In this document: one piece after another, positions 2 through 20,852 of the stretch | Numbering within the stretch: the first letter of the stretch is position 1 | Layout: each line of letters starts with the position of its first letter | Virus record (IMG/VR): IMGVR_UViG_3300009506_000203 | Strand: one strand, 5' to 3' | DNA length: 22,410 nt | From: a virus | The notes under the pieces: model-generated | Seen by the model: the letters and a program-made list of their open reading frames with translations, nothing else | Database searches by the model: none | Told to the model about the DNA's origin: nothing | Program-made: the position numbers and the translations under genes

Positions 2-958
2 GACCACGTCAACATCCGGCTGAAGCTGTCCCACCGGGTCAGCTTCGAGGGTGACCCCGAGAAGTGGTTCGACGTGGAGAACTACGTCAAGTTCCTGTGC
101 GACCACGTCCGGTCGGTGCTCAAGGGCGCCGTCAAGCGGATGACCGTCGAGAGCTTCTACGAGAACGCTGTGGACTTCGTCCGCGATACGATTCTCGGGA
201 AGGCCGAGGAGAAGGCCGGTCGGCCAGGCATGGTGTTCGAGGAGAACGGCATGCGCATCGTGGACATCGAGGTGCTGAGCATCCAGATCGTGGATCAGAC
301 GGTGTCCCAGCTGCTCGCGCAGGCGCAGCATGATGTCGTCGCCGGCAACATCATGCTCGACAAGGAGCGGCGCCAGCTGGTACTGACCCAGGAGCGTGAG
401 CGTGTCGCGCGCGAGCGCCGCGAGGCCGAGTACGAGACCGCCGCCCACGGGCTGAAGCTCACGTCGCAGCAGATCGCGGCCGAGCTTCAGGTCGAGATCG
501 AGCGGGCCAACAGCCAGCTCCAGCAGCAGAACAAGGAGAAGCAGGCCGTCGTGGCGGCCCGCGAGGCGATCTCCGACACCGAGCACAAGGCCAGCCTGGA
601 TCGGATCCAGGCGACCGAGCAGCAGCGGCTCAACGTCAAGAAGTCCGAGATCGACCTCCAGCGCGAGAGCCTGGAGGCCGAGGCCAACTCCGTGGTCAAG
701 CGGTTCGAGGCGCTTCAGCCACGGTTCACCGAGGCGCTGCTGGCGCTCCGCGACAGCCGCACCATCGAGGCCGTGGCCGAGGCGTGGAGCATGAACCGGG
801 TCGTCGGCGGCGCCAGCGTGGCCGACGCGCTGAGCACGGTGTTCAAGAACACCCCGCTCGGTGGGATCGCGCAGCGGCTCGCTGGCAGCAACGGCGAGTC
901 CGCTACGGTCGTTCCCGAGCCGCCGCAGCCGCCGACGAGGCCGCGTAGCCGGTCGTAG
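2..958 (+). CDS. SPFH/band-7 (flotillin-like) domain protein, 5'-truncated by the window edge
   Basis: The reading frame is open from nt 2, and listed ORF 74..958 is only its in-window Met-to-stop part. The block IVDIEVLSIQIVDQTVSQLLAQAQ followed by a long Q/E/R-rich coiled coil is typical of the C-terminal half of SPFH proteins. GC3 is high. Confidence 0.5.
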   Translation, partial: DHVNIRLKLSHRVSFEGDPEKWFDVENYVKFLCDHVRSVLKGAVKRMTVESFYENAVDFVRDTILGKAEEKAGRPGMVFEENGMRIVDIEVLSIQIVDQTVSQLLAQAQHDVVAGNIMLDKERRQLVLTQERERVARERREAEYETAAHGLKLTSQQIAAELQVEIERANSQLQQQNKEKQAVVAAREAISDTEHKASLDRIQATEQQRLNVKKSEIDLQRESLEAEANSVVKRFEALQPRFTEALLALRDSRTIEAVAEAWSMNRVVGGASVADALSTVFKNTPLGGIAQRLAGSNGESATVVPEPPQPPTRPRSRS

Positions 959-960
959 CG

Positions 961-1176
961 ATGCCTGACATCACGATGTGTACTGGAGGGGACTGCCCGT
1001 TCAAGGGCAACTGCTGGCGTGCTACGGCCACGCCGACGCCTATGCGCCAGTCCTGGTTCGAGGCGCCGCCGTTCCGTAAGGGACCTGGCGTGGACCGTGC
1101 AGGTGACGAGTTCGCCTGCTGCGCAGTAGACTCGTCGGTGGTCTCCTGCACCTACTACATCGATGACCGCTCCTAG
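961..1176 (+). CDS. small Cys-rich protein (CTGGDCPFKGNCWR...CC...C), possible metal-binding
   Basis: The ATG lies 2 nt after the upstream stop, suggesting coupling. It has 8 Cys in 71 aa. It is followed by a strong terminator. Confidence 0.45.
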   Translation: MPDITMCTGGDCPFKGNCWRATATPTPMRQSWFEAPPFRKGPGVDRAGDEFACCAVDSSVVSCTYYIDDRS

Positions 1177-1180
1177 ACAA

Positions 1181-1222
1181 GCCGGGGCCGGCGCCCTGCC
1201 ATCCACGCCGGCCCCGGTTTTG
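1181..1222 (+). terminator. intrinsic terminator (11-bp GC stem 1182-1192/1207-1217, then TTTT)
   Basis: CCGGGGCCGGC and GCCGGCCCCGG form a perfect inverted repeat followed by TTTTG, directly after the stop at 1176. Confidence 0.6.
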
Positions 1223-1251
1223 TCACCCCAGTCTGCTAACGTGCCCCCATC
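1218..1251 (+). promoter_or_regulatory. conserved cassette TTTGTCAC-N5-TCTGCTAA (copy A) preceding the operon head
   Basis: TTGTCAC at 1220-1226 and TCTGCTAA at 1232-1239 sit 12 nt upstream of ATG 1252. Copy B at 5116-5135 has identical spacing. TAACGT (1237-1242) is a possible -10. Confidence 0.4.
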
Positions 1252-1827
1252 ATGATCGCCGGGATCACAGGCCACCGGCCCTTGAAGCTAGGTGGCTACG
1301 ACGAACCCATGCGTGAGATTCTGGTCGAGACGCTGGCCGGACTTCTTGTCCGTGACGGCGCGACTCGTGGAGTCACCGGCATGGCCATCGGCGCTGATCA
1401 ATACTTCGCCGAGGCGTGCCTGTCTTTGCGCATTCCCTTCACGGCCGCGGTCCCCTTCGAGGGCCAGGAATCTAGGTGGCCGCCAGCTGCACAGCGCAAC
1501 TACCACAGGCTGCTCGCACTGGCCGCCAGCGTCGTCTACGTCTCGCCGCCGGGCTACGCCTTGTGGAAGATGCAGGCACGCAACCAGTGGGTGGTCGATC
1601 ACTGCGATCAACTCTACGCCGTCTGGGACGGCAGCACGGGCGGCACCGCCAACACGGTCATCTTGGCCAACAGGGCTCAGAGGATCGTGGAAGTCATCAA
1701 CCCAAGAGAGCTGATACATGCCCAACGAAACCCCCAACGATCAGCCGAGCGAAGACAGCCGGCCCTGGTGGCAACTGGTTCGCGTACAAGCCTTCGGCGG
1801 CCGGGTAAAGGAGCTGGAGACGCCTGA
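1252..1827 (+). CDS. YpsA/DUF1273-like SLOG-domain protein
   Basis: The N-terminal ITGHRP...LGG, the GMAIGADQYFAEA and the NQWVVDHCDQLYAVWDG blocks match the YpsA family pattern recalled from memory. The last ~36 codons overlap the next gene out of frame and have lower GC3. Confidence 0.5.
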   Translation: MIAGITGHRPLKLGGYDEPMREILVETLAGLLVRDGATRGVTGMAIGADQYFAEACLSLRIPFTAAVPFEGQESRWPPAAQRNYHRLLALAASVVYVSPPGYALWKMQARNQWVVDHCDQLYAVWDGSTGGTANTVILANRAQRIVEVINPRELIHAQRNPQRSAERRQPALVATGSRTSLRRPGKGAGDA

Positions 1828-2275
1828 GCTACGCGCCATCCACGAGGAGATTCAAGGAGCCGTACTGGGATTGCAGGGGGAGATAGAAGCCGAGAGCTAC
1901 GAGCTGCAAGTGGTCCGCGACCTGGCCCGCAAGCTTGGACCAGCCATCGCTTTCGATGCAGATCGGTTTGCTGCGGCCATCGTGAAGGAGTACGAGATTG
2001 CGCTCGACGAAGCGCATGAGATGGTGGACACCTTCGACTGGTGGCAGCGCGCGCGGAAGGCGCTCGGCTTCATGAAGCAGAAGCAGTCCATCGTCAGCGC
2101 CGAGGTAGCCCGCCGCCGAGCTGGCGATGCGGAGCAAGCTGTGTTCGCCATCAAAGGCAAGGTCAAGAAAGCCTCCTTGCTGCTCACTCGAATCCGCAGC
2201 AAGAACTCAGCCCTCGCCGAGGCCCGCAAGCTCATCGACGAGGTCGAATCACATCTGGACAAGGTAGGACCATGA
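1718..2275 (+). CDS. hypothetical protein (185 aa)
   Basis: It has an ATG start, high GC3 from the start, and an ATGA overlap with the next gene. Confidence 0.5.
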   Translation: MPNETPNDQPSEDSRPWWQLVRVQAFGGRVKELETPELRAIHEEIQGAVLGLQGEIEAESYELQVVRDLARKLGPAIAFDADRFAAAIVKEYEIALDEAHEMVDTFDWWQRARKALGFMKQKQSIVSAEVARRRAGDAEQAVFAIKGKVKKASLLLTRIRSKNSALAEARKLIDEVESHLDKVGP

Positions 2276-2472
2276 CACTCAGAGATACCAAGCCTGGTGA
2301 GCAGGTGATCAGCAACTCGTGGACCGGGTTCGTTTGGAAGACGGAGAACGTCCCCCGTGAGCTGACTGTGATCGAGCACGTCGGTGACTGCGTGTGGTGC
2401 AGATCCACTGACGGGTTCAACGCCGAGCGCTATCCCCTTCACGCCGACCTGGTCTGCCGCCGTGTCGTATGA
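2272..2472 (+). CDS. hypothetical small protein (66 aa, CxxC near the C-terminus)
   Basis: ATG 2272 overlaps the upstream stop in an ATGA, and AAGGTAGGA lies upstream. The listed ORF 2041..2472 is an upstream extension in the same frame. Confidence 0.45.
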   Translation: MTLRDTKPGEQVISNSWTGFVWKTENVPRELTVIEHVGDCVWCRSTDGFNAERYPLHADLVCRRVV

Positions 2473-2744
2473 TCGTCGTGCGGCTAGAGGTGTGGCCGCG
2501 GGGTAGGGAGGCGGCTAAGACCGAGCTGGGACTCGTGAAGATCGAGAACGATCTCACCGGAACGACCGCGCTCGGCAACTACATCTACACGTTTCTGCGC
2601 AAGCCGGCAGAGGCTATCCACCCGCGAGTCTGGATTCAGGGTCGCGTCGAGGGGTTTCCCCGCGCTCCTGCGGTCACGACCAGCCCCTGGCAGCTGCTGC
2701 GAGGTGTTCTCGACCACGCGCTAGGAGCTTCGGTATGGCCCTGA
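2469..2744 (+). CDS. hypothetical protein (91 aa)
   Basis: It has an ATGA overlap with the upstream gene and sits in an operon context. Confidence 0.5.
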   Translation: MIVVRLEVWPRGREAAKTELGLVKIENDLTGTTALGNYIYTFLRKPAEAIHPRVWIQGRVEGFPRAPAVTTSPWQLLRGVLDHALGASVWP

Positions 2745-3172
2745 CCCGTAAGATCGCCACCGAGCTGGTCGATGCCCTCAACGACCAGATGGAGCGTTGC
2801 CCTGGCTGCCACGGCGTCGGCAAGGTTCGACAGAGCGGCGACTACCAGGCCTGCTTCTGCCTGGTCTGCGAGGAGTCGGCGCGGGCGCTCTACCTGCTCA
2901 ACAGGAACGACCCCGACAGCATGGCCAAGCTCTCTGACCCGCACGTCCTGGAGGTGCTGCGGCCTGACTACGAGCGCACGGCCAACGCCGCTCGCGAGTT
3001 CGTCAAGCGCTGCCCTGGCTGCTTCGGAATCGGCAAGGTTTGGGCCGGAGCCCAACAGCGCTACTGCCTGGTGTGCCACCGACTCAGGCGTGCCATCGAA
3101 GCCTACGACGGCGTGACCGAGCTGGACAGCACACAGCCGAACGTCGTTCCGATCCCAACGAGGAAGCTATGA
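2735..3172 (+). CDS. tandem CxxCxGxG (DnaJ CR-type) zinc-finger protein
   Basis: Two repeats are present: RCPGCHGVGKV...CLVCE and RCPGCFGIGKV...CLVCH. AGGAG lies 7 nt upstream of the ATG. Confidence 0.55.
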   Translation: MALTRKIATELVDALNDQMERCPGCHGVGKVRQSGDYQACFCLVCEESARALYLLNRNDPDSMAKLSDPHVLEVLRPDYERTANAAREFVKRCPGCFGIGKVWAGAQQRYCLVCHRLRRAIEAYDGVTELDSTQPNVVPIPTRKL

Positions 3173-3756
3173 AGCAACGCGTGACGGCCACTGGCGTGGT
3201 CAACTGGGAAGGCACCGACCTCGATCCAGCTCGGGATGAGTTGATCGACGAGCGGTTCTTGCGCCCATCGATCGTGCGCGAGTTCATCCGTGCGACTGCA
3301 CCGAGCAAAGATGCTGCGAGCTGCCCCTGCTGTGGCCAGTTCGCCAAGGTCTACAAGCGGCACATCACAGGCGCGATGGCATGTGCTCTGATTCAGATCT
3401 ACCGGTACTACTGGAAGAACGCCTGGACTACCGAGTGGCTGCATGTCCCCGAGTACCTCGCGGCGCAGAAGATGCCCGCCAAGGTCAAAGCGGGTTGGCA
3501 CGGTGGAGATTGGTCGAAGCTCCGCTTCTGGCAGCTCATCGAGCCGAAGGACGACGAGCGCGCGGATGGTTCTCCTCGGGTCGGCTTCTACCGCATCACT
3601 GACCTCGGTCGGGACTTCGTCGAGCGCAAGATGGAGGTCCCCAAGTACGTCTTCCTCTACGCGAAGACACCGCTCGGGCTCGCGCTGCCCTACATCACCA
3701 TCGAGGACGCGCTCGGCGCTTCGTTTAGCTACAGCTCCTTGATGGACGGCATCTAA
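3169..3756 (+). CDS. hypothetical protein with a CPCCG motif (195 aa)
   Basis: ATG 3169 overlaps stop 3172 (ATGA). The listed ORF 3040..3756 is an upstream extension in the same frame. Confidence 0.5.
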   Translation: MKQRVTATGVVNWEGTDLDPARDELIDERFLRPSIVREFIRATAPSKDAASCPCCGQFAKVYKRHITGAMACALIQIYRYYWKNAWTTEWLHVPEYLAAQKMPAKVKAGWHGGDWSKLRFWQLIEPKDDERADGSPRVGFYRITDLGRDFVERKMEVPKYVFLYAKTPLGLALPYITIEDALGASFSYSSLMDGI

Positions 3757-3811: not shown

Positions 3812-3842
3812 TACACTCCGCCAATTGATCGCAGCTGCGATC
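3812..3842 (+). promoter_or_regulatory. -10-like TACACT (3812-3817) followed by palindrome GATCGCAGCTGCGATC (3827-3842, site 1)
   Basis: The 16-bp perfect palindrome lies in the 106-bp gap before gene 3863. The -10-like hexamer ends 9 nt upstream, and GGGGG (the SD) follows the palindrome. Confidence 0.4.
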
Positions 3843-4435: not shown

Positions 4436-4809
4436 TGCGACGCGTGATCATCGAGAGTCCCTACGCCGGCAACATCGAGGAGAACCTGGCCTACGTCCGC
4501 GCAGCGATGAAGGACAGCTTGAGTCGAGGTGAAGCTCCATTCGCATCCCATGCGTTGTACACGCAGCCTGGCGTCCTCAACGACGATGTCCCCGAGGAGC
4601 GCGAATGGGGCATCCATGCGGGGTTCGCATGGCGAGCTGCTGCCGAGGCGACCGTCGTCTACACCGACTACGGCATCTCGAAGGGCATGACATACGGCAT
4701 CGAAGCCGCGCAGAAAATGGGACAGCCGGTCGAGTACCGCACGTTGACGGCCGCAGCCCTGGCAGTGCTGAAGGCGATCAGCGAGTCATCACAGCCAGTA
4801 CCAGCCTAG
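4435..4809 (+). CDS. DUF4406 / nucleoside 2-deoxyribosyltransferase-like protein
   Basis: The N-terminus VIIESPYAGNIEENLAYVRAA resembles the AGPxSG...N motif of NDT-like phage proteins. There is a TGATG overlap with the upstream gene. Confidence 0.4.
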   Translation: MRRVIIESPYAGNIEENLAYVRAAMKDSLSRGEAPFASHALYTQPGVLNDDVPEEREWGIHAGFAWRAAAEATVVYTDYGISKGMTYGIEAAQKMGQPVEYRTLTAAALAVLKAISESSQPVPA

Positions 4810-4845
4810 CTATCACGACTAGTGCCGCCGTGATAGGATTACGGG
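4810..4845 (+). promoter_or_regulatory. inverted repeat CTATCACG-N11-CGTGATAG overlapping the extended -10 TGATAGGAT; leaderless promoter for 4846
   Basis: The arms are at 4810-4817 and 4829-4836. TGA-TAGGAT (4831-4839) ends 6 nt before ATG 4846, and there is no SD. Confidence 0.45.
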
Positions 4846-5037
4846 ATGCCGCGCAAGAGTTCGTCGCCATCCATCCGCACCTACCCCTACGTAGTCCGCT
4901 ACAAGAAGGGCGGGGCGACCTTCATGACGACGAAGAAGGGCGCTTGCGAGATGGCTGGCGTGATGCGCGAGCACTCTCCTCGAATCTACCTTCGGACAAC
5001 TGCGGGGGAATCGCGTATCAGCTGCAAGCGTCGCTAG
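4846..5037 (+). CDS. small basic protein (63 aa), leaderless
   Basis: It has an ATG start, GC3 of about 70%, and a putative terminator downstream. Confidence 0.4.
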   Translation: MPRKSSSPSIRTYPYVVRYKKGGATFMTTKKGACEMAGVMREHSPRIYLRTTAGESRISCKRR

Positions 5038-5080
5038 CTCTAGCTGGACTGAGTTGGCTGCGTGGCTCTAGGCGCGAATA

Positions 5081-5110
5081 GCCCCAGACGGGGCCGAATC
5101 GCGTCTTTTT
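5081..5110 (+). terminator. putative intrinsic terminator (GCCCCAGACGGGGC hairpin ... TCTTTTT)
   Basis: A 5-bp GC stem sits at 5081-5094, and the alternative stem AGACG/CGTCT ends in the T-run 5106-5110. Confidence 0.45.
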
Positions 5111-5114
5111 CGCA

Positions 5115-5146
5115 TTTGTCACACCTCTCTGCTAAAAAGAGGGTCC
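5115..5146 (+). promoter_or_regulatory. conserved cassette TTTGTCAC-N5-TCTGCTAA (copy B) plus SD AAAAGAGGG
   Basis: TTGTCAC is at 5116-5122, TCTGCTAA at 5128-5135, and the ATG at 5147. The spacing is the same as in copy A. Confidence 0.4.
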
Positions 5147-5542
5147 ATGAAAGACATGTTCGATCTGGAATCGAAGGTCCCCGACGAGCCGGAGGCCGAG
5201 ACGACCGAGGAGCAGGCGCCTGAAGGGCAGCCCGCAGCGCAGCCGCCGGGCGGTAACTACATCGTGCAGAACATCGTTCCGATGTTTCCCGGGTGGAGCG
5301 CCTGCTACGGTGACCCTGAAGTGCCCGAAGGCGTGATCACCTTCCCGGTCGTCGCACTCGCGCTGGTCCTGCTGCAACACCCCGACGGCCGCGCTGAGCA
5401 GACGGTCCGACATCTGGTCTCGACGCCGGCCGGGCAGATCGACGACATCGTCGAGTTACCTAACTTCATCTGTGTTGTGTCGCCGGGGCAGTCGCCCGAG
5501 GCGATCATCTCAGCCATGCAGAAGCTGCAAACGGCTTCCTAG
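5147..5542 (+). CDS. hypothetical protein (131 aa, acidic N-terminus)
   Basis: It has an ATG with an SD. Confidence 0.5.
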   Translation: MKDMFDLESKVPDEPEAETTEEQAPEGQPAAQPPGGNYIVQNIVPMFPGWSACYGDPEVPEGVITFPVVALALVLLQHPDGRAEQTVRHLVSTPAGQIDDIVELPNFICVVSPGQSPEAIISAMQKLQTAS

Positions 5543-5883: not shown

Positions 5884-6507
5884 ATGGGCGGCGACAACCC
5901 ACTCAAGCGCTGGAATCACCCGAACCACCACGCCGGGTTCCTCGCTGATCTAGCCATCCTGATCTACCGCCGGGGTGCGCGAGAGCGCGCCCTTCCCGGC
6001 GACCGTCCGCCTCCGGCGAGCGACACAGAACCGAAGCGGCTCAAGCGGTACTACAAAGCCGCCAGGGCAACTGTACGCGGCACGAGGACGGTCTGGACCG
6101 CCGAGGACAAACAGCGCTTCCAAGCAAACTGGGGGCGGCTCACGCACAACCCACAGGGGTTGCTGAGCCTTTGGAGTGAGGGCATCTTCCCCTATGGAGA
6201 GCTGGTAGCTGCGGCCGGGCAAATCCTCATCGGCCGCCTACTCGACCTTCAGCCAGCTAAGCGCATTCAGTACCTGAGCAGCGTCCGCGCTTGGGCTACA
6301 ATCACAGAGGACGATGTCTCCGACCTCGAAATACGGTGGCGGATCCGTGACTGGCTCGCGCTGGCCGAGGACGAAGTCACCAACATACCGCCAAACGCCC
6401 GGCTCGCTGCGGCCGCGGCTTGGAGGGTCGGCGCTTACCCGGTTGCTTTCCAGATCGTCGTGGATGCGGCAGCAGCAGTGGTGGAGAAGGTTGGAACACG
6501 ACGTTAA
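5884..6507 (+). CDS. hypothetical protein (207 aa)
   Basis: It has an ATG start and coding-like composition through to the stop. Confidence 0.45.
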   Translation: MGGDNPLKRWNHPNHHAGFLADLAILIYRRGARERALPGDRPPPASDTEPKRLKRYYKAARATVRGTRTVWTAEDKQRFQANWGRLTHNPQGLLSLWSEGIFPYGELVAAAGQILIGRLLDLQPAKRIQYLSSVRAWATITEDDVSDLEIRWRIRDWLALAEDEVTNIPPNARLAAAAAWRVGAYPVAFQIVVDAAAAVVEKVGTRR

Positions 6508-6517
6508 CCGCTGGTTT

Positions 6518-7204
6518 GTGACGCCCTGGCATGACTGCCGCAAAGCAGCTGCATGCTGCGTCGAGCTGGCACGGCTCGTGATGGCAGCTGCCGCGAAGCC
6601 CGCTGGATTTGGGTCGCAACCGGTGAGGGCAGCCAAACACCGCCGCCAGATGACTGATGCGGAGAGGACGATCGAGTGCGCGCTCCAGTTCGTCGAGAGC
6701 TACATCGACGGGACGATCTGCGAGTGGGCTGTCAACGATGACGACTACGACGGTCGCGATCCAATCGCTTGGATCTATGACGCAGCGGCGGAGTACGCCG
6801 ATGACGCATGGCGCGCGGGGTTTCTGCATGGCGAAGCCGATCGTAGTGCAGCCGGGGACATCGCAAAGCTCGGTTGCACCATTGTGCAGAAGTGGGCCGC
6901 AAACTCTACTGGTGGGGGAGCAGTGCCAAACACGATGGTGCAGCAAGCGGCGCAACTAGCGATCGGAGTCCGCGGGAACGTTGACTACGACGAGGTCTCG
7001 GCCGTCGCCTGTCGATGGCGATTCCACGACGCGCTCGGTGATGACACGGCTCCGACCGAGGAGCTGCGGCTGGCCTTCGAGGCTGCGTGGGACATCGGCC
7101 AGTATGAGTTTGCCTACCAGCTATGCCGACCACTCGACGAGGATATGATAGAAGATGAGCATGGAGATCGAGAGGAAGTTCCTGCTGCCGAGTCTGCCGG
7201 CTGA
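6518..7204 (+). CDS. hypothetical acidic protein; start uncertain (GTG 6518 or ATG 6581)
   Basis: The listed ORF 6314..7204 overlaps the upstream gene, but its first ~65 codons look like off-frame S/R/P-rich sequence. The first plausible starts after stop 6507 are GTG 6518 and ATG 6581. Confidence 0.4.
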   Translation: MTPWHDCRKAAACCVELARLVMAAAAKPAGFGSQPVRAAKHRRQMTDAERTIECALQFVESYIDGTICEWAVNDDDYDGRDPIAWIYDAAAEYADDAWRAGFLHGEADRSAAGDIAKLGCTIVQKWAANSTGGGAVPNTMVQQAAQLAIGVRGNVDYDEVSAVACRWRFHDALGDDTAPTEELRLAFEAAWDIGQYEFAYQLCRPLDEDMIEDEHGDREEVPAAESAG

Positions 7205-7622
7205 GATCCGGTCCATCACTCCGCTTACGATCACTCAGGGCTACGTCTTCGTCGAGCCCGGTGAGCTGCGACTGCGCGAGCAGGGCGACATCCAGTTCGT
7301 CGTGACGGTCAAGGACGATGGCAACCTCGCGCGTCGTGAGTGGTCAACAGAGGTCCCACGCTGGGCGTTCGACCTGCTGTGGCGTCAGACTGAGGGGCGT
7401 CGGCTGCGCAAGCTCCGCCGTATCGTCAAGACTGAGAAGCACACTCTCGAAGTCGATGAGTACGTGGGCAGCCTGACTGGCCTGTTCATCCTCGAAGTCG
7501 AGTTCCCGAGCGAGGCAGCCGCCGCAGCGTTCGAGCTTCCATGGTGGGGCCGAGACGCGCAGGAGGTCACGCAGGACCCGGCCTACAAGAACAAGCGGCT
7601 GGCGGTCAGCGGGCGACCTTGA
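7155..7622 (+). CDS. CYTH-domain (triphosphate tunnel metalloenzyme) protein
   Basis: The N-terminal MSMEIERKFLL is the CYTH EIERKFL signature. GAGGA lies 12 nt upstream. There is a 50-nt overlap with the upstream gene. Confidence 0.55.
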   Translation: MSMEIERKFLLPSLPAEIRSITPLTITQGYVFVEPGELRLREQGDIQFVVTVKDDGNLARREWSTEVPRWAFDLLWRQTEGRRLRKLRRIVKTEKHTLEVDEYVGSLTGLFILEVEFPSEAAAAAFELPWWGRDAQEVTQDPAYKNKRLAVSGRP

Positions 7623-7635
7623 TAGACTGCTGAGC

Positions 7636-7939: not shown

Positions 7940-7965
7940 TGTATCATCGATCGTAGCCACGATCG
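7940..7965 (+). promoter_or_regulatory. TGTATCAT -10-like element followed by palindrome site 3 (GATCGTAGCCACGATC, 7949-7964)
   Basis: The near-palindrome has GATCG/CGATC arms. TATCAT (7942-7947) is immediately upstream. Confidence 0.4.
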
Positions 7966-9661: not shown

Positions 9662-10348
9662 ATGACCGTACATCGCATCGATCTAAAGTGGTCACTCTGG
9701 TCCGTCAACGAGGAGACTTGGGAGGAGCGCGGCGCATCCAAGGCGCTCGCGGCAATGAAAGCGGCGGCGGCCGGCGGCGACCCAGTCACCGTCCACACGA
9801 CTCCTGGGAAGGAAATCAGGTACGGTACCGTGACCATCGGCCGCCGGCCCGATCACTTCATGGCTGAGCACGCGCGTTTCCTGCCCCAGCTGACGGCAGC
9901 CTACGATAGGCTGTCGGAGGAACAACGGGCCGAGGCCGAGGCGCTCGAAGCTGCCTTCTTCGACGGCGACCGGGCAGGATTCATCGCGTGGGCTCAGGAG
10001 CAGGTCCCGGAGGCGTTTACAACGCCCGAGCCACCCGCTCCGACCAACGTCGCCTACGTGCACTTCTGCGCCCTCTGGGACGATCCAGCCGACCTCGTGC
10101 CCGACAGTGTGTCCGAGGAGCGCCGCGAGGAAGTCGAGGATCAGATTCGGAGTTGGCTCGCCAACGGGGCAGGTTTCGACGAGTCCGGCGACGCCGTCGG
10201 CGCGCAGATCGATGCCGAGGTCGAGGCTGGGGACTTCGCCGAGCTGCTACGTGACATCGATGAGATCGAGAACGCGTTGCTGGAGCGCGAGGCGGCTAAC
10301 AGCAAGGCGCTCGACGAGTTCTTGACTACACTCGGGGCTGCTACCTAG
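9662..10348 (+). CDS. hypothetical acidic protein (228 aa)
   Basis: It has an SD GGAG and then an ATG. Confidence 0.5.
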   Translation: MTVHRIDLKWSLWSVNEETWEERGASKALAAMKAAAAGGDPVTVHTTPGKEIRYGTVTIGRRPDHFMAEHARFLPQLTAAYDRLSEEQRAEAEALEAAFFDGDRAGFIAWAQEQVPEAFTTPEPPAPTNVAYVHFCALWDDPADLVPDSVSEERREEVEDQIRSWLANGAGFDESGDAVGAQIDAEVEAGDFAELLRDIDEIENALLEREAANSKALDEFLTTLGAAT

Positions 10349-10871
10349 CCTGGTGGACGTAGGACTTCGCGCAGGTCACGGCTCGACGAAGCGTATTCTC
10401 GTGGCAGGGGAGCGCGCCCTGACCACGAAGGCGCTTCGCAGTCCACTTGCCGCCCTTCTGGTCGAAGGCGATGGACACGCCGTTGATCTTGCCCACCCAC
10501 CCAACGATCGACCGGCGGAACCGGATGCCGCTCATCTTGCGGTTCATCTGGACCCCAGCCAGCTCGACCTCGTCGTAGCGAGACTGGTCGTGCAGCGGCC
10601 GGCCGGAGTACTTGGTCGAGCAGACGGGAACGTCCTCGTGCGTCCAGGAGGCCGGAAGTCGGTTCCGCTTGTTGCAGCTCACCAGGAACAGGCCACCCTC
10701 CGGGCCCTTTCCAGGGCACGCGAAGTTGATGTCCACGTCGCCGACTCCTGAGCCGCTCTCGCTGATCGCCTTCTGCACGGCATCCTTCCAGCCGCGAGTA
10801 GACACTGGGTAGCTGCCGAAGCGCTGGCTTCCGGCGGGCGTCGTGACCACGAACTTGCACTTGCCGTTCAT
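10341..10871 (-). CDS. hypothetical Cys/His-containing protein (176 aa)
   Basis: The internal ATG at 10871 has AGGA upstream. The alternative frame 10345..10986 is R/P-rich sequence. There is an 8-nt convergent overlap with the gene ending at 10348. Confidence 0.45.
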   Translation of the reverse strand: MNGKCKFVVTTPAGSQRFGSYPVSTRGWKDAVQKAISESGSGVGDVDINFACPGKGPEGGLFLVSCNKRNRLPASWTHEDVPVCSTKYSGRPLHDQSRYDEVELAGVQMNRKMSGIRFRRSIVGWVGKINGVSIAFDQKGGKWTAKRLRGQGALPCHENTLRRAVTCAKSYVHQAR

Positions 10872-10882
10872 AGCTCTCAATC

Positions 10883-11509
10883 CTACTCGATCTCGTCGGC
10901 GCCGAGAACCCCTCGCAGGCCCGCGCTGACGTTGACGCAGCGGACGGCTGCCCGGAGCGACTTCTGCCGCCGACATGCCCGAGCAATCTTGCGGCCGCGG
11001 GGAGTTAGCGCGGCTTCGACGAACCACTCACCGTCGGGACGCTGCGTGAACCTGTACAGATCGCCTTCTACTTCAGCCTCCCAGCGGGGAACGATCGCCG
11101 CGCGTCTGCGGAGCAGCGTGTCCCCTACTCTCACGGCCTTTCCCAGCACGCCTTTGGCTATGAGCTGCGGGTCCAGCTCATAGACGTGCTCGATGCCCGA
11201 TGCCGTATGGAACACGACCGGTGTGCCGTCGGGGTATCGCGATCGATACCAGGTCACGCTCCAGTCATTGCGCATGAATTCGGCTGTGAGGTCCCGACCT
11301 TCACCCCACCAGTCGCGCTTGACCACCTTCCACCCTCCCACAGCCTTGGCAAACTGGTTCGGGGTGATCTCCTCGGCGTGGTTCGTGATGTACTGCACGA
11401 TGTCGTCGTCTGTTTCAGCAATAGCGGCAGCGTTGTGCTCGGGCGGTGGACTCGGGCAGTGCCAAGCGAAGTGGTAGCCTCCGGGCGTCAGCTTGGTGTT
11501 CTTCGACAT
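10883..11509 (-). CDS. hypothetical protein (208 aa), leaderless
   Basis: GTGATAGGAT on the minus strand ends 7 nt before ATG 11509. Confidence 0.5.
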   Translation of the reverse strand: MSKNTKLTPGGYHFAWHCPSPPPEHNAAAIAETDDDIVQYITNHAEEITPNQFAKAVGGWKVVKRDWWGEGRDLTAEFMRNDWSVTWYRSRYPDGTPVVFHTASGIEHVYELDPQLIAKGVLGKAVRVGDTLLRRRAAIVPRWEAEVEGDLYRFTQRPDGEWFVEAALTPRGRKIARACRRQKSLRAAVRCVNVSAGLRGVLGADEIE

Positions 11510-11550
11510 CGAATCGATCCTATCACCTGCCGATGATAGAGTGGAAGCTC
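11510..11550. promoter_or_regulatory. 41-bp divergent region: inverted repeat CTATCA-N8-TGATAG whose two arms are the extended -10 elements of back-to-back leaderless promoters
   Basis: On the minus strand, GTGATAGGAT is followed 7 nt later by ATG 11509. On the plus strand, GATGATAGAGT is followed 8 nt later by GTG 11551. Confidence 0.45.
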
Positions 11551-11835
11551 GTGAAGAAGCTCGCCACGGTTCGCCACATAGACGGTTCTTTCTATGCCTG
11601 GATCTTTCAGTGCCCAGGCTGCCACGACGTGCACCTCGTCGATGGTCGATGGTCCTTCAACAACGACCAAGAGAAGCCGACGTTCCAGCCGTCACTGAAA
11701 CGAACGCGCCCAGGTTACTGCTGCCACTCGTTCGTTCGTGACGGAAAGATCCAGTTTCTCGGTGATTGTACGCACGAGCTTGCGGGCCAAACCGTCGAGA
11801 TTCCAGACTGGGATGGATGGGGCGGCTACGAGTAG
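11551..11835 (+). CDS. hypothetical CPGC...CC protein (alternative start ATG 11533)
   Basis: The listed ORF 11446..11835 extends into the divergent gene. GTG 11551 fits the leaderless promoter, while ATG 11533 lies inside the -10. Confidence 0.45.
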   Translation: MKKLATVRHIDGSFYAWIFQCPGCHDVHLVDGRWSFNNDQEKPTFQPSLKRTRPGYCCHSFVRDGKIQFLGDCTHELAGQTVEIPDWDGWGGYE

Positions 11836-11888: not shown

Positions 11889-12083
11889 GTGGAACAGGCG
11901 ACGCTGGACATGCTCCTGAGTACGTTGACGACGGAGAGTCTCACCGCGCTGGCGGAACCGCGCAAGGACGACGACTCGACGACTACTGCATTGCGGCAGC
12001 ATGCCGCAGTACAGCTCGCCGCTCGACGCGCGAGAGCGGCAGACGAGCTGCACACCGCTCCTGGTGCTCAGCCAGGAAGATGA
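11889..12083 (+). CDS. questionable small ORF (64 aa)
   Basis: A strong SD AAGGAGG sits 8 nt before GTG 11889. GC3 collapses in the second half, where it overlaps the minus-strand Cys-rich gene. Confidence 0.25.
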   Translation: MEQATLDMLLSTLTTESLTALAEPRKDDDSTTTALRQHAAVQLAARRARAADELHTAPGAQPGR

Positions 12084-12204
12084 CCCGCACAGGGACACGG
12101 CAGAACGCGCACGGAACGCAGACAGGGAAGCACTGGTGCTCAGGGTCGTGCTGAGCGCCCGGTGCGTGGCAATCGCAGTCACAGTAGGTCGAGATGGTGT
12201 ACAT
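11983..12204 (-). CDS. small Cys-rich protein (YCDCDCH...CFPVCVPCAFC)
   Basis: It has an ATG at 12204 with a GGGGGG SD, and GC3 of about 79%. Confidence 0.4.
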   Translation of the reverse strand: MYTISTYCDCDCHAPGAQHDPEHQCFPVCVPCAFCRVPVRVIFLAEHQERCAARLPLSRVERRAVLRHAAAMQ

Positions 12205-13086: not shown

Positions 13087-13120
13087 AGCGTGAGTCTACA
13101 CCATGATCGCGGCTGCGATC
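13087..13120 (-). promoter_or_regulatory. palindrome site 2 (GATCGCGGCTGCGATC, 13105-13120) followed by GTGTAGACT promoter
   Basis: The palindrome abuts the stop of the upstream minus gene. On the minus strand, the -10 is 6 nt downstream of the palindrome. Confidence 0.45.
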
Positions 13121-13770
13121 TACTTTCGAGGGCGGCGTGGCCGGAAAGAGACGCGTGCCTGGACGGGCTCGCAGTTATAGCCCCATTCCGACAGTGAGTT
13201 GCCGTCCGTCCGAAGGCACGCGGCTGGGACTCGCTTCGAGAGCACACACATGTCCTGGGACGGGTCGGTCCCGTGCCGGCCGTGCTGGATCGCGTAGTCT
13301 CGGGACGTGGTCACCCAGTCGCCGTTGTTGATTTCGCGGACATCGCAGGGAACGGCGCGGTACATCCAGACGCGCGCATCTGGCCGACCTCGGACCCGGC
13401 TCGCGACGTGGAAAGACTCCCAATCGGTCGGTCCGTAGGCGTACCAGTCGGGGCGCCGATAGACATCGTCCGGGTAGACACCGTTGTCGGTCAGATCGTA
13501 GAGCGGCGCGCCTTCCTCACCCGCGGGCCGGTGTTGCATCCCGTAGTCATCCGGCGCCGCGCCGAACAGCCCGCGTAGGCCGCGGACCAAGCCACGTAGC
13601 AACCCGAAGCCGCGGAACTGGGGCCGCTGCTCCGCGTAGCTCGACGCGACGACGTAGCCGTTGGCGATCTTCTCGGCGTGTCGCTCGGCCTGGTCAGGAA
13701 ACTGGTAGACGGCGACCTGTCGAGGGCCGATACCAGGGCGATACTTGAACACCTTGTAGAAGGTTGCCAT
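13120..13770 (-). CDS. hypothetical protein (216 aa)
   Basis: The internal ATG at 13770 has a GAGGA SD and forms a TGATG overlap with the NUDIX stop. The listed ORF 13120..13842 is an upstream extension in the same frame. Confidence 0.5.
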   Translation of the reverse strand: MATFYKVFKYRPGIGPRQVAVYQFPDQAERHAEKIANGYVVASSYAEQRPQFRGFGLLRGLVRGLRGLFGAAPDDYGMQHRPAGEEGAPLYDLTDNGVYPDDVYRRPDWYAYGPTDWESFHVASRVRGRPDARVWMYRAVPCDVREINNGDWVTTSRDYAIQHGRHGTDPSQDMCVLSKRVPAACLRTDGNSLSEWGYNCEPVQARVSFRPRRPRK

Positions 13771-16853: not shown

Positions 16854-16906
16854 GTCTCAACATATCACGCTGCGATCACTCACGCGACCGCGATCAGATC
16901 AGCTTG

Positions 16907-17536: not shown

Positions 17537-18034
17537 CTACCGGTGGTGGCGGCGACCGCTCAGCTCGACTGGTGGCGGACATGCGACCGGGCGGGGCTTG
17601 CGCTCCTTCTTCAACCGCTGGAAGCCAGCAGCGCGCCCTCTCTCAATGCCGGCCTTCACGCCCTTCGTCTGCGGGACCTCACCGAGGATCCGCTCAGGTG
17701 GAATGGGCTCGCTGGTCATGTAGAACTCAGGCAGGTTCGGCGACCGCAACGGCCGGTAGACCGGGCAGTGCTCTTTGGTCCCGACGATCCTCACCTTGAG
17801 GATGGTTAGGGGCTCGTCGGGGCAGCCCTCCCTGACGGCCCGCTTCGCGATGTGCTCTGCGGCGTAGTTCGGGCTCCGCGTGAACCAGATGTCGCCCCGC
17901 GGGCCCTTCCTCAATCCCTGCTTCTTGATGAGGCTCGCACGGAGCTTGTAGGTCCCGTGGTAGCCCACGAAGTCACACTTGCCGAAGGGCTGGACCTCGA
18001 CCCACTTGCCTAGCTGGCGGCGTCGCCTTGACAT
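17537..18034 (-). CDS. minimal Tpt1/KptA-like (NAD-dependent ADP-ribosyl/2'-phosphotransferase fold) protein with a basic C-terminal tail
   Basis: VGYHGTYKLRASLIKKQGLRKGPRGDIWFTRS...EPLTILKV parallels KptA LYHGTASRFLDEIKKQGL...RHYVHLS...SPVILTV. The N-terminal RNA-binding lobe is absent. The start is leaderless at ATG 18034. Confidence 0.4.
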   Translation of the reverse strand: MSRRRRQLGKWVEVQPFGKCDFVGYHGTYKLRASLIKKQGLRKGPRGDIWFTRSPNYAAEHIAKRAVREGCPDEPLTILKVRIVGTKEHCPVYRPLRSPNLPEFYMTSEPIPPERILGEVPQTKGVKAGIERGRAAGFQRLKKERKPRPVACPPPVELSGRRHHR

Positions 18035-18073
18035 GGGCCCCAGTATACACGGTCTCGGATCGCAGCTGTGATC
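18035..18073 (-). promoter_or_regulatory. leaderless promoter GTGTATACT plus palindrome site 4 (GATCGCAGCTGTGATC, 18058-18073)
   Basis: On the minus strand, TATACT ends 7 nt before ATG 18034. The palindrome lies 10 nt upstream of the -10, in the -35 position. Confidence 0.45.
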
Positions 18074-18246
18074 GAGCGGCCTGCGACCGGGCCCGCGGTC
18101 GAACCCGCGGCCGAGACATCGAGACAGCGATACCGGAGCGGGGCCATCCCCCCGAATCGCCACGGGGTGGCGGCACAGTTCTGTGCAGGCCCACTGAGAT
18201 GTGCTCTACTGGTGGCGGAGACGTTCGAGGTGGCTGGGTGCCGCGG

Positions 18247-18284
18247 CGCCCGCCAGGCTGAGCTGGTCTGGCGGGCGTCATTTT
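18247..18284 (+). terminator. intrinsic terminator-like hairpin (10-bp stem CGCCCGCCAG/CTGGCGGGCG, then TCATTTTG)
   Basis: It is a perfect inverted repeat with a T-run, and no plus-strand CDS lies upstream. Confidence 0.45.
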
Positions 18285-18440
18285 GCCGGCCTTCGAGCCG
18301 CCCGAGCTGGCCGCCCCGCGCAGCTCGTGTGGGCTCCTGTCGCGCCCATGGCCGAGCTGGTTGGGCCGCGCGGCCAGCGCCCGCGACGAGGCCACAGAGG
18401 CGCTCCTGGAGCGTCCTGGAGGGCATGCACTATACGCCCG

Positions 18441-18720
18441 ATCGGAAGATCCAATTTTGGGGGTCTAACTACCTTGATCGGGCCCTTTTTCGGCCCGTTT
18501 CCCCTTTGATTACCGGCCTGTGTAGGTGATCGTTACTCAGGGTTAGATCCCTCCCCTACCCCTTATAGATCCGCTGGTACATCTATCAACTTTTCATAGA
18601 TTTACTAGCCGAAACTAAGGAGGGTATAGGGACTTCTAACCTTGTAGATTTCGGGTGTTTTCAGTAGGGATCTCACGGAGATCAAGGTCCCCCTCCAATT
18701 GTTAGTGGTACGGCGCGTCA
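18441..18720. repeat. AT-rich (about 45-50% GC) repeat island
   Basis: It contains TCTAAC twice and GGTTAGA as inverted copies. It has three YRTAGATYY direct repeats, a GATCTC-acg-GAGATC palindrome, and an orphan AAGGAGG. Confidence 0.4.
18479..18505 (+). terminator. hairpin CGGGCC-ctttttc-GGCCCG followed by TTTCCCCTTTGATT
   Basis: It has a 6-bp GC stem and a T-rich tail, at the edge of the AT-rich island. Confidence 0.4.
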
Positions 18721-18796
18721 AAGTTGAAATGTAGTCGTGGCAACGGGTAGTACACTGCAAGAAAGTCACTGGCCCTTGCGGCCGGTGACTGTGAAT

Positions 18797-18868
18797 GTCG
18801 TTGACGTGCTATGTCAACGTCGCACGCTGTCGTTGCACGTCGCGAGCGTGCCGTGTACGATCCCAACG
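18797..18868 (+). promoter_or_regulatory. operator repeats plus a sigma70-like promoter TTGCAC-17-TACGAT for the RHH-AP2 gene
   Basis: Direct repeats TGTCGTTGACGT (18797-18808) and TGTCGTTGCACGT (18829-18841) flank the inverted copy GTCAACG (18813-18819). The -10 at 18856-18861 ends 7 nt before ATG 18869. Confidence 0.45.
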
Positions 18869-19561
18869 ATGCCGCCGAAGCACCGTCTCACGGTTCGCAT
18901 GGAGGATGACCTCTATGACTACCTGCATCAACGCGCGGCACGAAATTTCCGCACGGCACCCGACGAAGTGCAGGCGATCGTATTTGCGCTGAGGGCTGCT
19001 GAGCGCGCTGCGGATACCTCTCCGTTGCCGTCGTCCGAGCTGCCGGCCGTGCTGACGGGCGCTTCCGACGCGGGACCTGAAGCGGAGCCCGAGGCGCCCC
19101 CCGAGCCCGGTGTGACCCACAAGCTCCGCGGCCCGCGCGGCACCCTCTCGGGCTACTTCGGCGTACACCGGTACGGGAAGCGTTGGATAGCCAAGCTGAC
19201 CAGAAATGGTGTAGCGACAAAGGTCGGTGTGTTCGACGACCCGGAGGAAGCTGCCCAAGCCTACGACGACGCCGTCAGGACCAGCGGAACTGGCGGCCGG
19301 CTCAACTTCCCGACGGAGCAGGAGGAAGCTGCACGGTCCAGCGGCGGCTTGGAGACGCTGCCTGACTGGATCCGCGTGCAGGGGCCCGGAGCGTCGGACA
19401 TCCCCCCAGAGCATCTTCCTGAAGCTCTACGGCGTGGTCTCATCGCGTCCGGCGAGATGGACGTGCCGCCAGTCGAGGACCACTACGAGGCGCCCTCTGA
19501 TGAGGACGCGGACCTGGTCCCGGACCCGGACATCGACCCCGATCCGCCCTCCCTCCACTGA
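18869..19561 (+). CDS. ribbon-helix-helix + AP2 DNA-binding domain regulator
   Basis: The N-terminal RLTVRMEDDLYDYLHQRAARNF is an RHH beta-strand and helix. GYFGVHRYGKRWIAKLTRNGVATKVGVFDDPEEAAQAYDDAV is an AP2 domain. The upstream 44 codons of listed ORF 18737..19561 cover the operator repeats. Confidence 0.6.
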   Translation: MPPKHRLTVRMEDDLYDYLHQRAARNFRTAPDEVQAIVFALRAAERAADTSPLPSSELPAVLTGASDAGPEAEPEAPPEPGVTHKLRGPRGTLSGYFGVHRYGKRWIAKLTRNGVATKVGVFDDPEEAAQAYDDAVRTSGTGGRLNFPTEQEEAARSSGGLETLPDWIRVQGPGASDIPPEHLPEALRRGLIASGEMDVPPVEDHYEAPSDEDADLVPDPDIDPDPPSLH

Positions 19562-19951: not shown

Positions 19952-20038
19952 GAGGCCAATCTATCACGAAGCAGAAACCGCCACCAGGCGTCGAAACGCT
20001 GTGGGACCGCGCTGGAGCGTCAGGATTAAAGAAGCGCA

Positions 20039-20812: not shown

Positions 20813-20820
20813 GCAGGCAG

Positions 20821-20852
20821 TTTGTCACAGCGGTGTGACAGACTAGCCGGCC
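20821..20852. promoter_or_regulatory. palindrome TGTCACA-gcgg-TGTGACA in a divergent intergenic region (contains TTTGTCAC)
   Basis: The arms are at 20823-20829 and 20834-20840. Each arm gives a GTGACAnACT -10-like element pointing at the flanking start codons. Confidence 0.35.

Follow-up and report, generated by a model that had tools for sequence, protein, structure and literature searches.

The window, by which we mean the whole stretch of DNA analysed here, is a 22.4-kb contig with a GC content of 63% and is phage-like by its PHROG matches, with no close relative among GenBank phages. At 11510-11550 two of its predicted transcription units diverge (Table 1). The leftward unit begins with gpA and gpB. 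gpB has a TAGGAT-N8-ATG of its own, in which the TAG is the stop codon of gpA, and each of the two gpB domains has stand-alone homologues. The rightward gene codes for a DUF6527 protein. DUF6527 (BubE) was recently shown to be a zinc-finger serine peptidase that acts in bacterial Bub operons to remove ubiquitin-like conjugates (bioRxiv 10.1101/2024.11.21.623953). A stand-alone phage copy transcribed from its own strong promoter is plausible as a counter-defence gene.

The first-pass annotation of this DNA described gpA and gpB (10341-11509) as a reversed two-gene insert. This is doubtful: the DUF6527 gene has the lowest GC content in the window and is perhaps itself the reversed gene. Downstream of it, the called plus-strand ORF 11889-12083 has a competitor on the minus strand, a Cys-rich ORF (11983-12204). 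If the minus-strand ORF is real, DUF6527 may be a single reversed gene in a leftward array running from 18034 to 10341.

The minus-strand ATG (11507-11509) and the plus-strand GTG (11551-11553) are separated by 41 bp, and a check of the sequence found the coordinates given in the first-pass annotation to be exact. The inverted repeat reported there, composed of CTATCA (11520-11525), the spacer cctgccga and TGATAG (11534-11539), is also present. CTATCA-N4..16-TGATAG has two matches in the window against 0.01 expected from shuffles; this pairing is not due to chance. On the minus strand TGATAGGAT (11525-11517) constitutes the TGnTAnnnT element of the leftward promoter, located 7 nt from ATG 11509, while the plus-strand arm reads GATGATAGAGT at 11532-11542, with its -10 element 8 nt from GTG 11551. 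The two -10 hexamers (11517-11522 and 11537-11542) do not overlap and have 14 bp between them; the predicted start sites are at 11509 and 11551, a distance of 42 bp. An independent assembly (L054) differs by 14 SNPs in 20.5 kb, none of them within the dyads, and is therefore uninformative.

Table 1. Coordinates of the divergent junction and of related promoter features in the window. Distances in nt are those between the -10 box and the start codon.
Feature	Position	Strand	Description
gpA	10883..11509	-	208 aa, of no known family; leads the leftward unit
gpB	10341..10871	-	176 aa in two domains, of no known family; follows gpA in the leftward unit
DUF6527 gene (PF20137, BubE-like zinc-finger peptidase family)	11551..11835	+	94 aa; lowest GC in the window (0.57)
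Inverted repeat CTATCA-N8-TGATAG	11520..11539	both	Corresponds to two putative -10 boxes, one per strand
Putative extended -10 GTGATAGGAT	11526-11517	-	Leftward promoter; hexamer TAGGAT 11522-11517; identical 10-mer before ATG 4846
Putative extended -10 TGATAGAGT	11534..11542	+	Rightward promoter; hexamer TAGAGT 11537-11542
gpA start ATG, predicted transcription start (leaderless)	11507..11509	-	No independent Shine-Dalgarno; homologous domain of P0002 begins at residue 4
DUF6527 start GTG, predicted transcription start (leaderless)	11551..11553	+	Homologue N-termini, PHROG/Pfam register, no Shine-Dalgarno, 8-nt spacing as at ATG 20853
Back-to-back junction, 40 bp	20813..20852	both	Leftward TGACAAACT, 6 nt, GTG 20812; rightward TGACAGACT, 8 nt, ATG 20853
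Second dyad CTATCACG-N11-CGTGATAG	4810..4836	both	CTATCACG 4810-4817; CGTGATAG 4829-4836; -10 region of the 4846 promoter forms the right arm
Putative extended -10 TGATAGGAT, 6 nt, ATG 4846 (leaderless)	4831..4839	+	Same 10-mer GTGATAGGAT as in the leftward promoter
Moron-like insertion, 372 bp	4747..5118	+	Absent from the 69% relative L067
TGATAGACT, 7 nt, ATG 7636	7620..7628	+	TGATAG class; no partner arm
TGATAGATT, 6 nt, ATG 19951	19958..19966	-	TGATAG class; no partner arm
TGATATGTT, 5 nt, ATG 16853	16859..16867	-	Related box
TATACT-N7-ATG 18034		-	Variant box obeying the spacing rule

TGATAG occurs eight times in the 22.4 kb of the window. Its extension TGATAGnnT (TGATAGNNT), followed after 5-8 nt by an RTG codon, was observed five times against 0.08 expected from shuffles, and all five matches are at ORF starts: 4846, 7636, 11509 (minus strand), 11551 and 19951 (minus strand), with spacing of 6-8 nt. 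The more general TGnTAnnnT is found 5-8 nt upstream of six of the 38 gene starts, 11551 being included among them, compared to one of the 1241 other ATG/GTG codons (p = 3e-9). Genes preceded by the box have no independent Shine-Dalgarno sequence (only the AGGA inside TAGGAT), while nearly all the others carry a GGAGG-like one at the normal distance. No recognisable -35 element was found at any TGATAG-class site in the window, as expected for extended -10 promoters. None of these sites was detected by a generic sigma-70 promoter scan, since such a scan requires a -35 hexamer.

Relatives of the window were found via its 464-aa marker protein (phrog_2319), whose homologues have 69-37% identity. 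Three related contigs (L067, L071 and L070) share the -10 box design with leaderless spacing. The exact 9-mer of the rightward promoter occurs in L067 as TGATAGAGT-N6-ATG (at 11502), and again as TGATAGAGT-N6-ATG in a 45-bp divergent gap of L071, upstream of a minus-strand gene starting at 4442; L070 has TAGAGT-N5-ATG. L071 additionally contains several textbook TTGACA-N17-TAnnnT-N6-ATG sites. The 11510-11550 unit itself is not covered by the relatives found.

The recurrence of the motif, its fixed distance to the start, its complementarity to Shine-Dalgarno use and its conservation in relatives were thus all obtained by computation. Together with the box variants, they point to leaderless transcription from sigma-70-type promoters as a trait of this phage lineage. 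Both sides of the junction have what a leaderless extended -10 promoter is expected to have, namely TGnTAnnnT on the coding strand, a purine-first start codon 5-8 nt further on and no Shine-Dalgarno sequence. The proposal of the first-pass annotation that each arm reads as an extended -10 and that the promoters are opposed therefore fared well: box recurrence at a fixed distance from starts, the relatives, the absence of Shine-Dalgarno sequences and the N-termini of DUF6527 homologues (see below) speak for it. That the arms are extended -10 elements of two divergent leaderless promoters can be considered a well supported prediction.

On the rightward side this prediction depends on the start codon of the DUF6527 gene. 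The automatic gene caller chose the in-frame ATG 11533, which is inside the right arm; with this choice the gap shrinks to 23 bp and the -10 element falls inside the gene. In about 20 DUF6527 homologues the CPGC zinc motif is preceded by 15-22 residues, with M-A/K-K-V/L as a typical start. GTG 11551 leaves 20 residues before CPGC (MKKLATV) and ATG 11533 leaves 26, and the register of both the PHROG and the Pfam profiles agrees with GTG 11551. There is no usable Shine-Dalgarno sequence in front of either GTG 11551 or ATG 11533 (cacctgccgATG). GTG 11551 is favoured over ATG 11533, and the comparison with homologues appears to settle the start; the ORF of the gene caller would then be 18 nt too long. 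With 8 nt between the -10 box and this GTG, the spacing is among the longest of the usual range; ATG 20853 has the same.

If ATG 11533 were nevertheless the true start, only the leftward promoter would be real. The DUF6527 gene would be transcribed from a promoter inside gpA, and TGATAG would simply belong to codons 1-3 (A-TGA-TAG). A TGnTAnnnT match suitable for producing a leadered mRNA does exist there (TGGTAGCCT, 11472-11480), ATG is a commoner start codon than GTG and was the choice of the gene caller, and the 45-bp divergent gap of L071 has one leadered side with a Shine-Dalgarno sequence. These points (the long rightward spacing, the GTG start, the preference of the caller for ATG 11533 and the alternative TGGTAGCCT box) also count against the reading we prefer. 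However, leadered genes in this phage have strong Shine-Dalgarno sequences and ATG 11533 has none. GTG 11551 agrees with both the homologue N-termini and the profile register, the 9-mer TGATAGAGT stands unchanged before leaderless ATGs in L067 and L071, and ATG 20853 has the same 8-nt spacing. We therefore regard transcription from within gpA as unlikely.

The reading we prefer, with a probability of roughly two in three, is that the junction contains two back-to-back leaderless promoters of the sigma-70/SigA type and that the inverted repeat is their by-product and not a dedicated operator. Both would be extended -10 promoters (TGnTAnnnT) with no recognisable -35, assigned to a host SigA type by motif resemblance only. 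From the leftward GTGATAGGAT promoter, transcription would begin at the A of ATG 11509 and provide expression of gpA and gpB. The rightward TGATAGAGT promoter would express DUF6527 from a start at the G of GTG 11551 or not more than 1-2 nt away from it. Both start positions are deduced from spacing only. Both mRNAs would be leaderless, with translation independent of a Shine-Dalgarno sequence. The inverted repeat would then exist because the 6-nt core TGATAG is written once on each strand. As the start sites are 42 bp apart, each -10 box should lie within the upstream DNA covered by polymerase at the partner promoter. Since polymerase is known to cover about -55 to +20, the two promoters most likely compete for host polymerase and are used one at a time.

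The window has a second divergent junction (20812/20853) with nearly the same layout. Reading from left to right, it consists of 6 nt, a 9-nt box, 8 nt, another 9-nt box and 8 nt, compared to 7, 9, 8, 9 and 8 nt at 11509/11551. The box is TGACAnACT in this case, as opposed to TGATAGnnT at 11510-11550. Since the geometry is the same and the box is different, it is the architecture and not the TGATAG word that is repeated: two -10 boxes 8 nt apart with start sites about 42 bp apart. The 20812/20853 junction also forms an 11/13 palindrome with a predicted hairpin of -23.5 kcal/mol (z -5.2).

A second promoter class, TGTCAC-N10-hexamer-N6..8-start, is present before ATG 5147, in front of its L067 orthologue and on both sides of the 20812/20853 junction (sites at 5117 and 20823/20840). 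Its spacing equals that of the PafBC motif of mycobacteria. The "-26 element" promoters controlled by PafBC have tGTCgg-N10-tAnnnT, where the capitalised G of GTC is strongly conserved (PMC8635444). The TGTCAC-N10 sites, in which the gg positions read AC, fit this motif better than the 11510-11550 junction does.

The existence of this class in the phage group allows for another explanation of the inverted repeat. The complement of each -10 box (TATCAC or TATCAT) could serve as a "-26-type" element (T[A/G]TCAC-N10-hexamer) of the partner promoter, and a factor such as an activator of the PafBC/WYL type ("sigma adaptation") would act in both directions. Indeed, TATCAC at 11521-11526 matches TGTCAC in five of six positions, and both combinations at the junction (TATCAC-N10-TAGAGT and TATCAT-N10-TAGGAT) have the right spacing. 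They deviate from the consensus, however: the strongly conserved G of the published tGTCgg (PMC8635444) is replaced by A. Furthermore, TGATAGnnT is a near-consensus extended -10 and should need no activator, no upstream element of this sort precedes the promoters at 7620, 19966 and 16867, and the left arm at 4810-4836 is 7 nt out of register. Bidirectional activation of this kind appears improbable.

The first-pass annotation also stated that the same pairing recurs at 4810-4836, overlapping the promoter of the gene starting at 4846, and this is correct. The second dyad is a part of an insertion. In L067, the DUF7768 gene is followed after 6 nt by a gene for a 130-aa protein; the alignment shows that the window has 372 extra bp between these two genes, with an imperfect direct repeat (CGCACGTTG ... 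CGCATTTG) on either side. The extra DNA gives the DUF7768 gene a different C-terminal tail and stop codon, and it also contains the dyad with its promoter. Next come an ORFan of 63 aa (4846-5037), for which 5.8 billion proteins yielded no homologue, and a terminator hairpin (5070-5106, -22.1 kcal/mol, z -3.1) that leads into a U-tract.

Phage morons are autonomous promoter-gene-terminator insertions between conserved genes, a concept which reportedly goes back to Juhala and Hendrix. The 4747-5118 segment separates genes that are adjacent in a relative and has its own putative promoter, a single ORFan and a hairpin terminator with a U-tract, so by its sequence it looks like a textbook moron. 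Unlike other morons, it also rewrites the C-terminus of the upstream gene.

The left arm of this dyad (4810-4817) is an orphan. It reads TGATAGCTA on the minus strand, with no start codon downstream, and does not constitute a usable promoter. The 9-mer of the arm, CTATCACGA, is nevertheless complementary, base for base, to the promoter in front of ATG 19951 when reversed. An in-frame patch of 21 nt in the insertion also has a significant match in gpB, at the other dyad locus (20 of 21 nt identical, E = 5e-4). The probability of finding CTATCA within 16 nt of the 4831 promoter is about 0.01 or less; together with its orphan state, this speaks against the inverted repeats being purely a by-product of promoter boxes. 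We also considered that the left arm had been cut at the insertion boundary and rejected this, as the boundary is 63 nt further to the left. Our best, though unproven, guess is that the cassette brought along a back-to-back module, of which this arm is the leftward promoter in decayed form. The arm is the only observation for which the by-product model has no account.

A more elaborate possibility may be formulated for these sites. The units at 11516-11542 and 20819-20844 could be two-in-one regulated promoters where each -10 element doubles as an upstream element for its partner, the dyad is perhaps an operator, and a single factor of the host or the phage sets the balance between directions; the 4810-4817 arm would then be a functional element of a mobile promoter cassette. 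We mention this as a speculation with rather low odds.

In the first-pass annotation, the inverted repeat was interpreted as the target of one dyad-symmetric protein occluding both promoters, and the whole region as a compact bidirectional switch. Neither proposal found support in our analysis. Symmetry at 11516-11542 is limited to the TGATAG core and scattered bases (9/14), and the last three box positions differ between the arms (GAT and AGT). The symmetric bases at 11520-11539 are exactly those common to the whole promoter class, and the spacer is not palindromic. The distance between the hexamers is not constant either: it is N8 at 11520-11539 and N15 at 4810-4836, a difference of 7 bp. 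A partner arm is altogether missing from the promoters at 7620 and 19966, which are equally good. Thus, neither symmetry beyond the promoter consensus nor constant half-site spacing, as expected of a repressor-operator switch, was found, and the dyad is explained by the common promoter box.

It is conceivable that the dyad has an operator function in addition to its promoter role, with one dimeric phage or host regulator binding to both 11520-11539 and 4810-4836 and shutting off the two divergent promoters and the 4846 promoter together. Any protein bound at the dyad would occlude the -10 boxes, and both dyads are located on GTGATAGGAT promoters. The arms at 4810-4836 match over 8 bp in spite of the left one being an orphan, and the patch of 21 nt shared elsewhere by the two loci suggests a common history. 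However, the arms are 14 bp apart (centre to centre) at one site and 19 bp at the other, which places them on opposite helical faces. Half-sites shifted by about half a helical turn are incompatible with one rigid dimer. Given also the restriction of symmetry to class-wide promoter bases, the unpaired promoters and the lack of a candidate regulator among the ORFs of the window (see below), a shared operator is not a likely role for the TGATAG dyads.

Searches of Pfam, PHROGs and NCBIfam with about 40 ORFs of the window revealed no DNA-binding regulator (HTH, RHH or other), and a PDB sequence search with gpA and gpB retrieved no regulator either. AlphaFold models were poor (pLDDT of 51 for gpB and 57 for the 63-aa protein), and Foldseek comparison to PDB produced nothing below E = 0.4. 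An AP2-like C-terminus of gpB, considered at first, was not confirmed. A different repeat, the 16-bp palindrome GATCGCAGCTGCGATC, has four intergenic copies in the window against 0.38 expected. Of these copies, one lies across part of the -35 region of the promoter at 18034, and another is conserved at the orthologous position in L067. This palindrome seems a more convincing operator candidate than the TGATAG dyad.

The dyads could alternatively act as nucleic acid structures, i.e., an RNA hairpin, a terminator or a DNA cruciform. The 4810-4836 dyad directly follows the stop codon of the upstream gene, and read-through RNA could fold into an 8-bp stem. Yet in folding energy the two dyads do not surpass shuffled sequences (z -0.65, -0.72 and -1.16), a U-tract is absent, and the moron has a clear terminator of its own elsewhere. 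No transcript should cross 11510-11550 if both mRNAs are leaderless; this, combined with the unremarkable hairpin energies, would exclude an RNA role at the main junction. Neither Rfam families nor tRNAs were found. A structural role is thus highly improbable for the dyads.

Searches for the same junction in other phages returned little. A megablast search of GenBank phages gave no match, and tblastn with gpA gave none in phages or in IMG/VR. Among 5.8 billion proteins, gpA has one partial homologue of a different architecture and with no common upstream region. The 257-aa protein of the 20812/20853 junction has no relative in IMG/VR, and relatives of the DUF7768 protein have 36% identity at most. 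Scanning of IMG/VR with CTATCA-N8-TGATAGNNT-N5..8-ATG found 116 matches, almost all of them in AT-rich contigs, as chance predicts; the mirrored half was present in only one of 80 matches. Two high-GC matches (L081 and L151) have orphan left arms, numbers too small to interpret. As the matches are at the chance level, the exact module is not a widespread mobile element. Protein matches of the window are scattered over phages of Actinobacteria, Acidobacteria, Alphaproteobacteria and Gammaproteobacteria, and a scan of genome contigs with the 464-aa family found nothing.

The value of these results is mainly in annotation and in the flagging of two autonomous expression cassettes. Gene callers misplace leaderless starts in uncultured high-GC phages, and a simple rule (TGAyAnnnT, 5-8 nt, start codon) may correct them; it can also be used to map the transcription units in a lineage of phages none of which has been cultured. 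The two small self-contained cassettes flagged by the rule are the 63-aa ORFan moron and the stand-alone BubE-family peptidase, and the latter could plausibly counteract ubiquitin-like antiphage conjugation systems. A word of caution also follows: an inverted repeat between divergent genes can be just two strong promoter boxes, and calling it an operator needs further symmetry or a binding protein.

Control of divergent genes by a single operator is well known from the E. coli bioA/bioBFCD locus with BirA, from tetR/tetA of Tn10 and from phage switches of the cI/cro type. Such systems have an identified repressor gene and operator symmetry extending beyond promoter hexamers. The 11510-11550 junction resembles them in being a compact divergent pair with a central dyad whose occupant would block both promoters. 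It differs in that no regulator or additional symmetry was found and that dyad spacing varies between the two sites.

Another kind of divergent transcription is represented by symmetry-type bidirectional promoters, where start sites are 7-25 bp apart (mode 18 bp) and -10 hexamers overlap and pair with each other (Warman et al., bioRxiv 10.1101/2020.01.31.928960; PMC12825309). Here, transcription would also diverge from a pseudo-symmetric region, and one polymerase is expected to exclude the other. The junction does not belong to that class, as its predicted start sites are 42 bp apart and its hexamers are separate. In E. coli bidirectional promoters, such competition is of consequence mostly where one of the two sides is under strong activation (PMC12825309).

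The closest precedent is the divergent PL1/PR2 pair of Cluster O mycobacteriophages, both promoters of which are predicted to be leaderless (PMC4351075). In both cases a short intergenic region contains a divergent pair with the predicted +1 at the first base of the start codon, and in both a separate short dyad repeat, of 17 bp in Cluster O and of 16 bp in the window, is scattered between genes. Unlike in Cluster O, the gap studied here is a 41-bp GC-rich and not an AT-rich one, there is no -35 element, and the -10 boxes carry a TGA extension. The two have no sequence relationship. Overall, divergent leaderless promoters that probably compete for polymerase are not a new kind of mechanism, and what is new is this example of them in an uncultured phage.

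A second back-to-back junction in the window repeats the geometry of the 11510-11550 gap and carries a far stronger palindrome, AGTTTGTCACAGC|GGTGTGACAGACT, with 11/13 positions matched (dG -23.5 kcal/mol, z -5.2). As a dyad, it is more striking than the 11510-11550 junction itself. Coordinates of this and other features discussed here are collected in the table.

Leaderless promoters are also present in L071, the relative at 37% identity. One of its divergent gaps (45 bp) has a leaderless side, TGATAGAGT-N6-ATG, and a leadered opposite side; several near-consensus TTGACAAT-N17-TAnnnT-N6-start promoters were found there as well. Since the GC content of L071 is only 51%, the leaderless design is kept over a wide GC range in this phage lineage.

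The moron carries its own promoter, a terminator (hairpin plus U-tract, 5070-5112) and, between them, a 63-aa ORFan; it is bordered by an imperfect direct repeat CGCACGTTG/CGCATTTG and replaces the C-terminal end of the DUF7768 protein. It shares a 21-nt patch with gpB, the second gene of the leftward unit (4765-4785 versus the reverse complement of 10758-10778; identity at 20 of 21 positions, E = 5e-4 for a comparison inside the window). The patch is in frame on both sides, coding for AVLKAISES in the moron-derived DUF7768 tail and AVQKAISES in gpB. It links the two loci bearing the GTGATAGGAT promoter. At the gpA/gpB boundary, TAGGAT-N8-ATG can be read either as an internal leaderless promoter of gpB or as a coupling signal.

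In the public annotation, the rightward DUF6527 gene has probably been called 18 nt too long (start at 11533 versus 11551). The ORF called next after it has a weak codon bias, and the minus-strand ORF competing with it is preceded by a good Shine-Dalgarno sequence. Whether DUF6527 stands alone as a reversed gene depends on which of these two ORFs is genuine. Members of the DUF6527/BubE family are described in recent work as Zn-finger serine peptidases which strip ubiquitin-like conjugates (bioRxiv 10.1101/2024.11.21.623953). The family (phrog_3362) is common in viral contigs, with 53 loci in IMG/VR, and the phage stand-alone copy is possibly a counter-defence gene.

A 16-bp palindrome, GATCGCAGCTGCGATC, occurs four times in the window with 0-3 mismatches (0.38 copies expected), each time between genes. 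Among the copies, one overlaps the 18034 promoter in its -35 region, another adjoins the stop codon of a gene (13120-13770) with similarity to the C-terminus of ParB, and one is kept at the orthologous site in L067, the relative at 69% identity. The palindrome may serve as an operator or as a parS-like site.

The region without a called gene has the leftward array on one side and an HNH endonuclease gene (18899-19561) on the other. Several short repeats lie in it, as does an orphan TGATAGATG on the minus strand at 18588, and Rfam and tRNA searches gave no match within it. This region may serve as an origin, as a packaging site or in regulation. The first ORF of the window is unusual for a phage in being vault-protein-like; its L067 homologue (785-3436, 883 aa) matches Vault_3 and MVP_shoulder.

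Features discussed in the text (window coordinates unless a relative is named)
Feature	Position	Remarks
First ORF	74-958	Major Vault Protein shoulder domain PF11978, E = 4e-17
Moron	4747-5118	372 bp, missing from L067
TAGGAT-N8-ATG of gpB	10871-10885	TAG doubles as gpA stop codon
DUF6527/BubE-family protein	11551-11835	phage stand-alone copy
Competing ORFs	11889-12083 (+); 11983-12204 (-)	called, 64 aa; Cys-rich, 73 aa
Region without called gene	18035-18898	865 bp, GC partly lower (0.575)
Second back-to-back junction	20813-20852	GTG 20812 (-) / ATG 20853 (+)
Palindrome GATCGCAGCTGCGATC	3827-3842, 7949-7964, 13105-13120, 18058-18073	L067 copy about 6102-6117
TGTCACA[C/G] promoters	5117-5149; 20823-20844 (both strands)	L067 about 7020-7057
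L071 promoter sites	4442/4488, 6204, 10001, 12808, 19134	

A second promoter class, TGTCACA[C/G]-N8-hexamer-N6..8-start codon, was recognised in the window and L067. The -10 hexamers of this class depart from the consensus (TAAAAA, TACATA, CAGACT, CAAACT), as would be expected of activator-dependent promoters. The spacing is identical to that of the mycobacterial PafBC '-26 element' motif, tGTCgg-N10-tAnnnT (PMC8635444).
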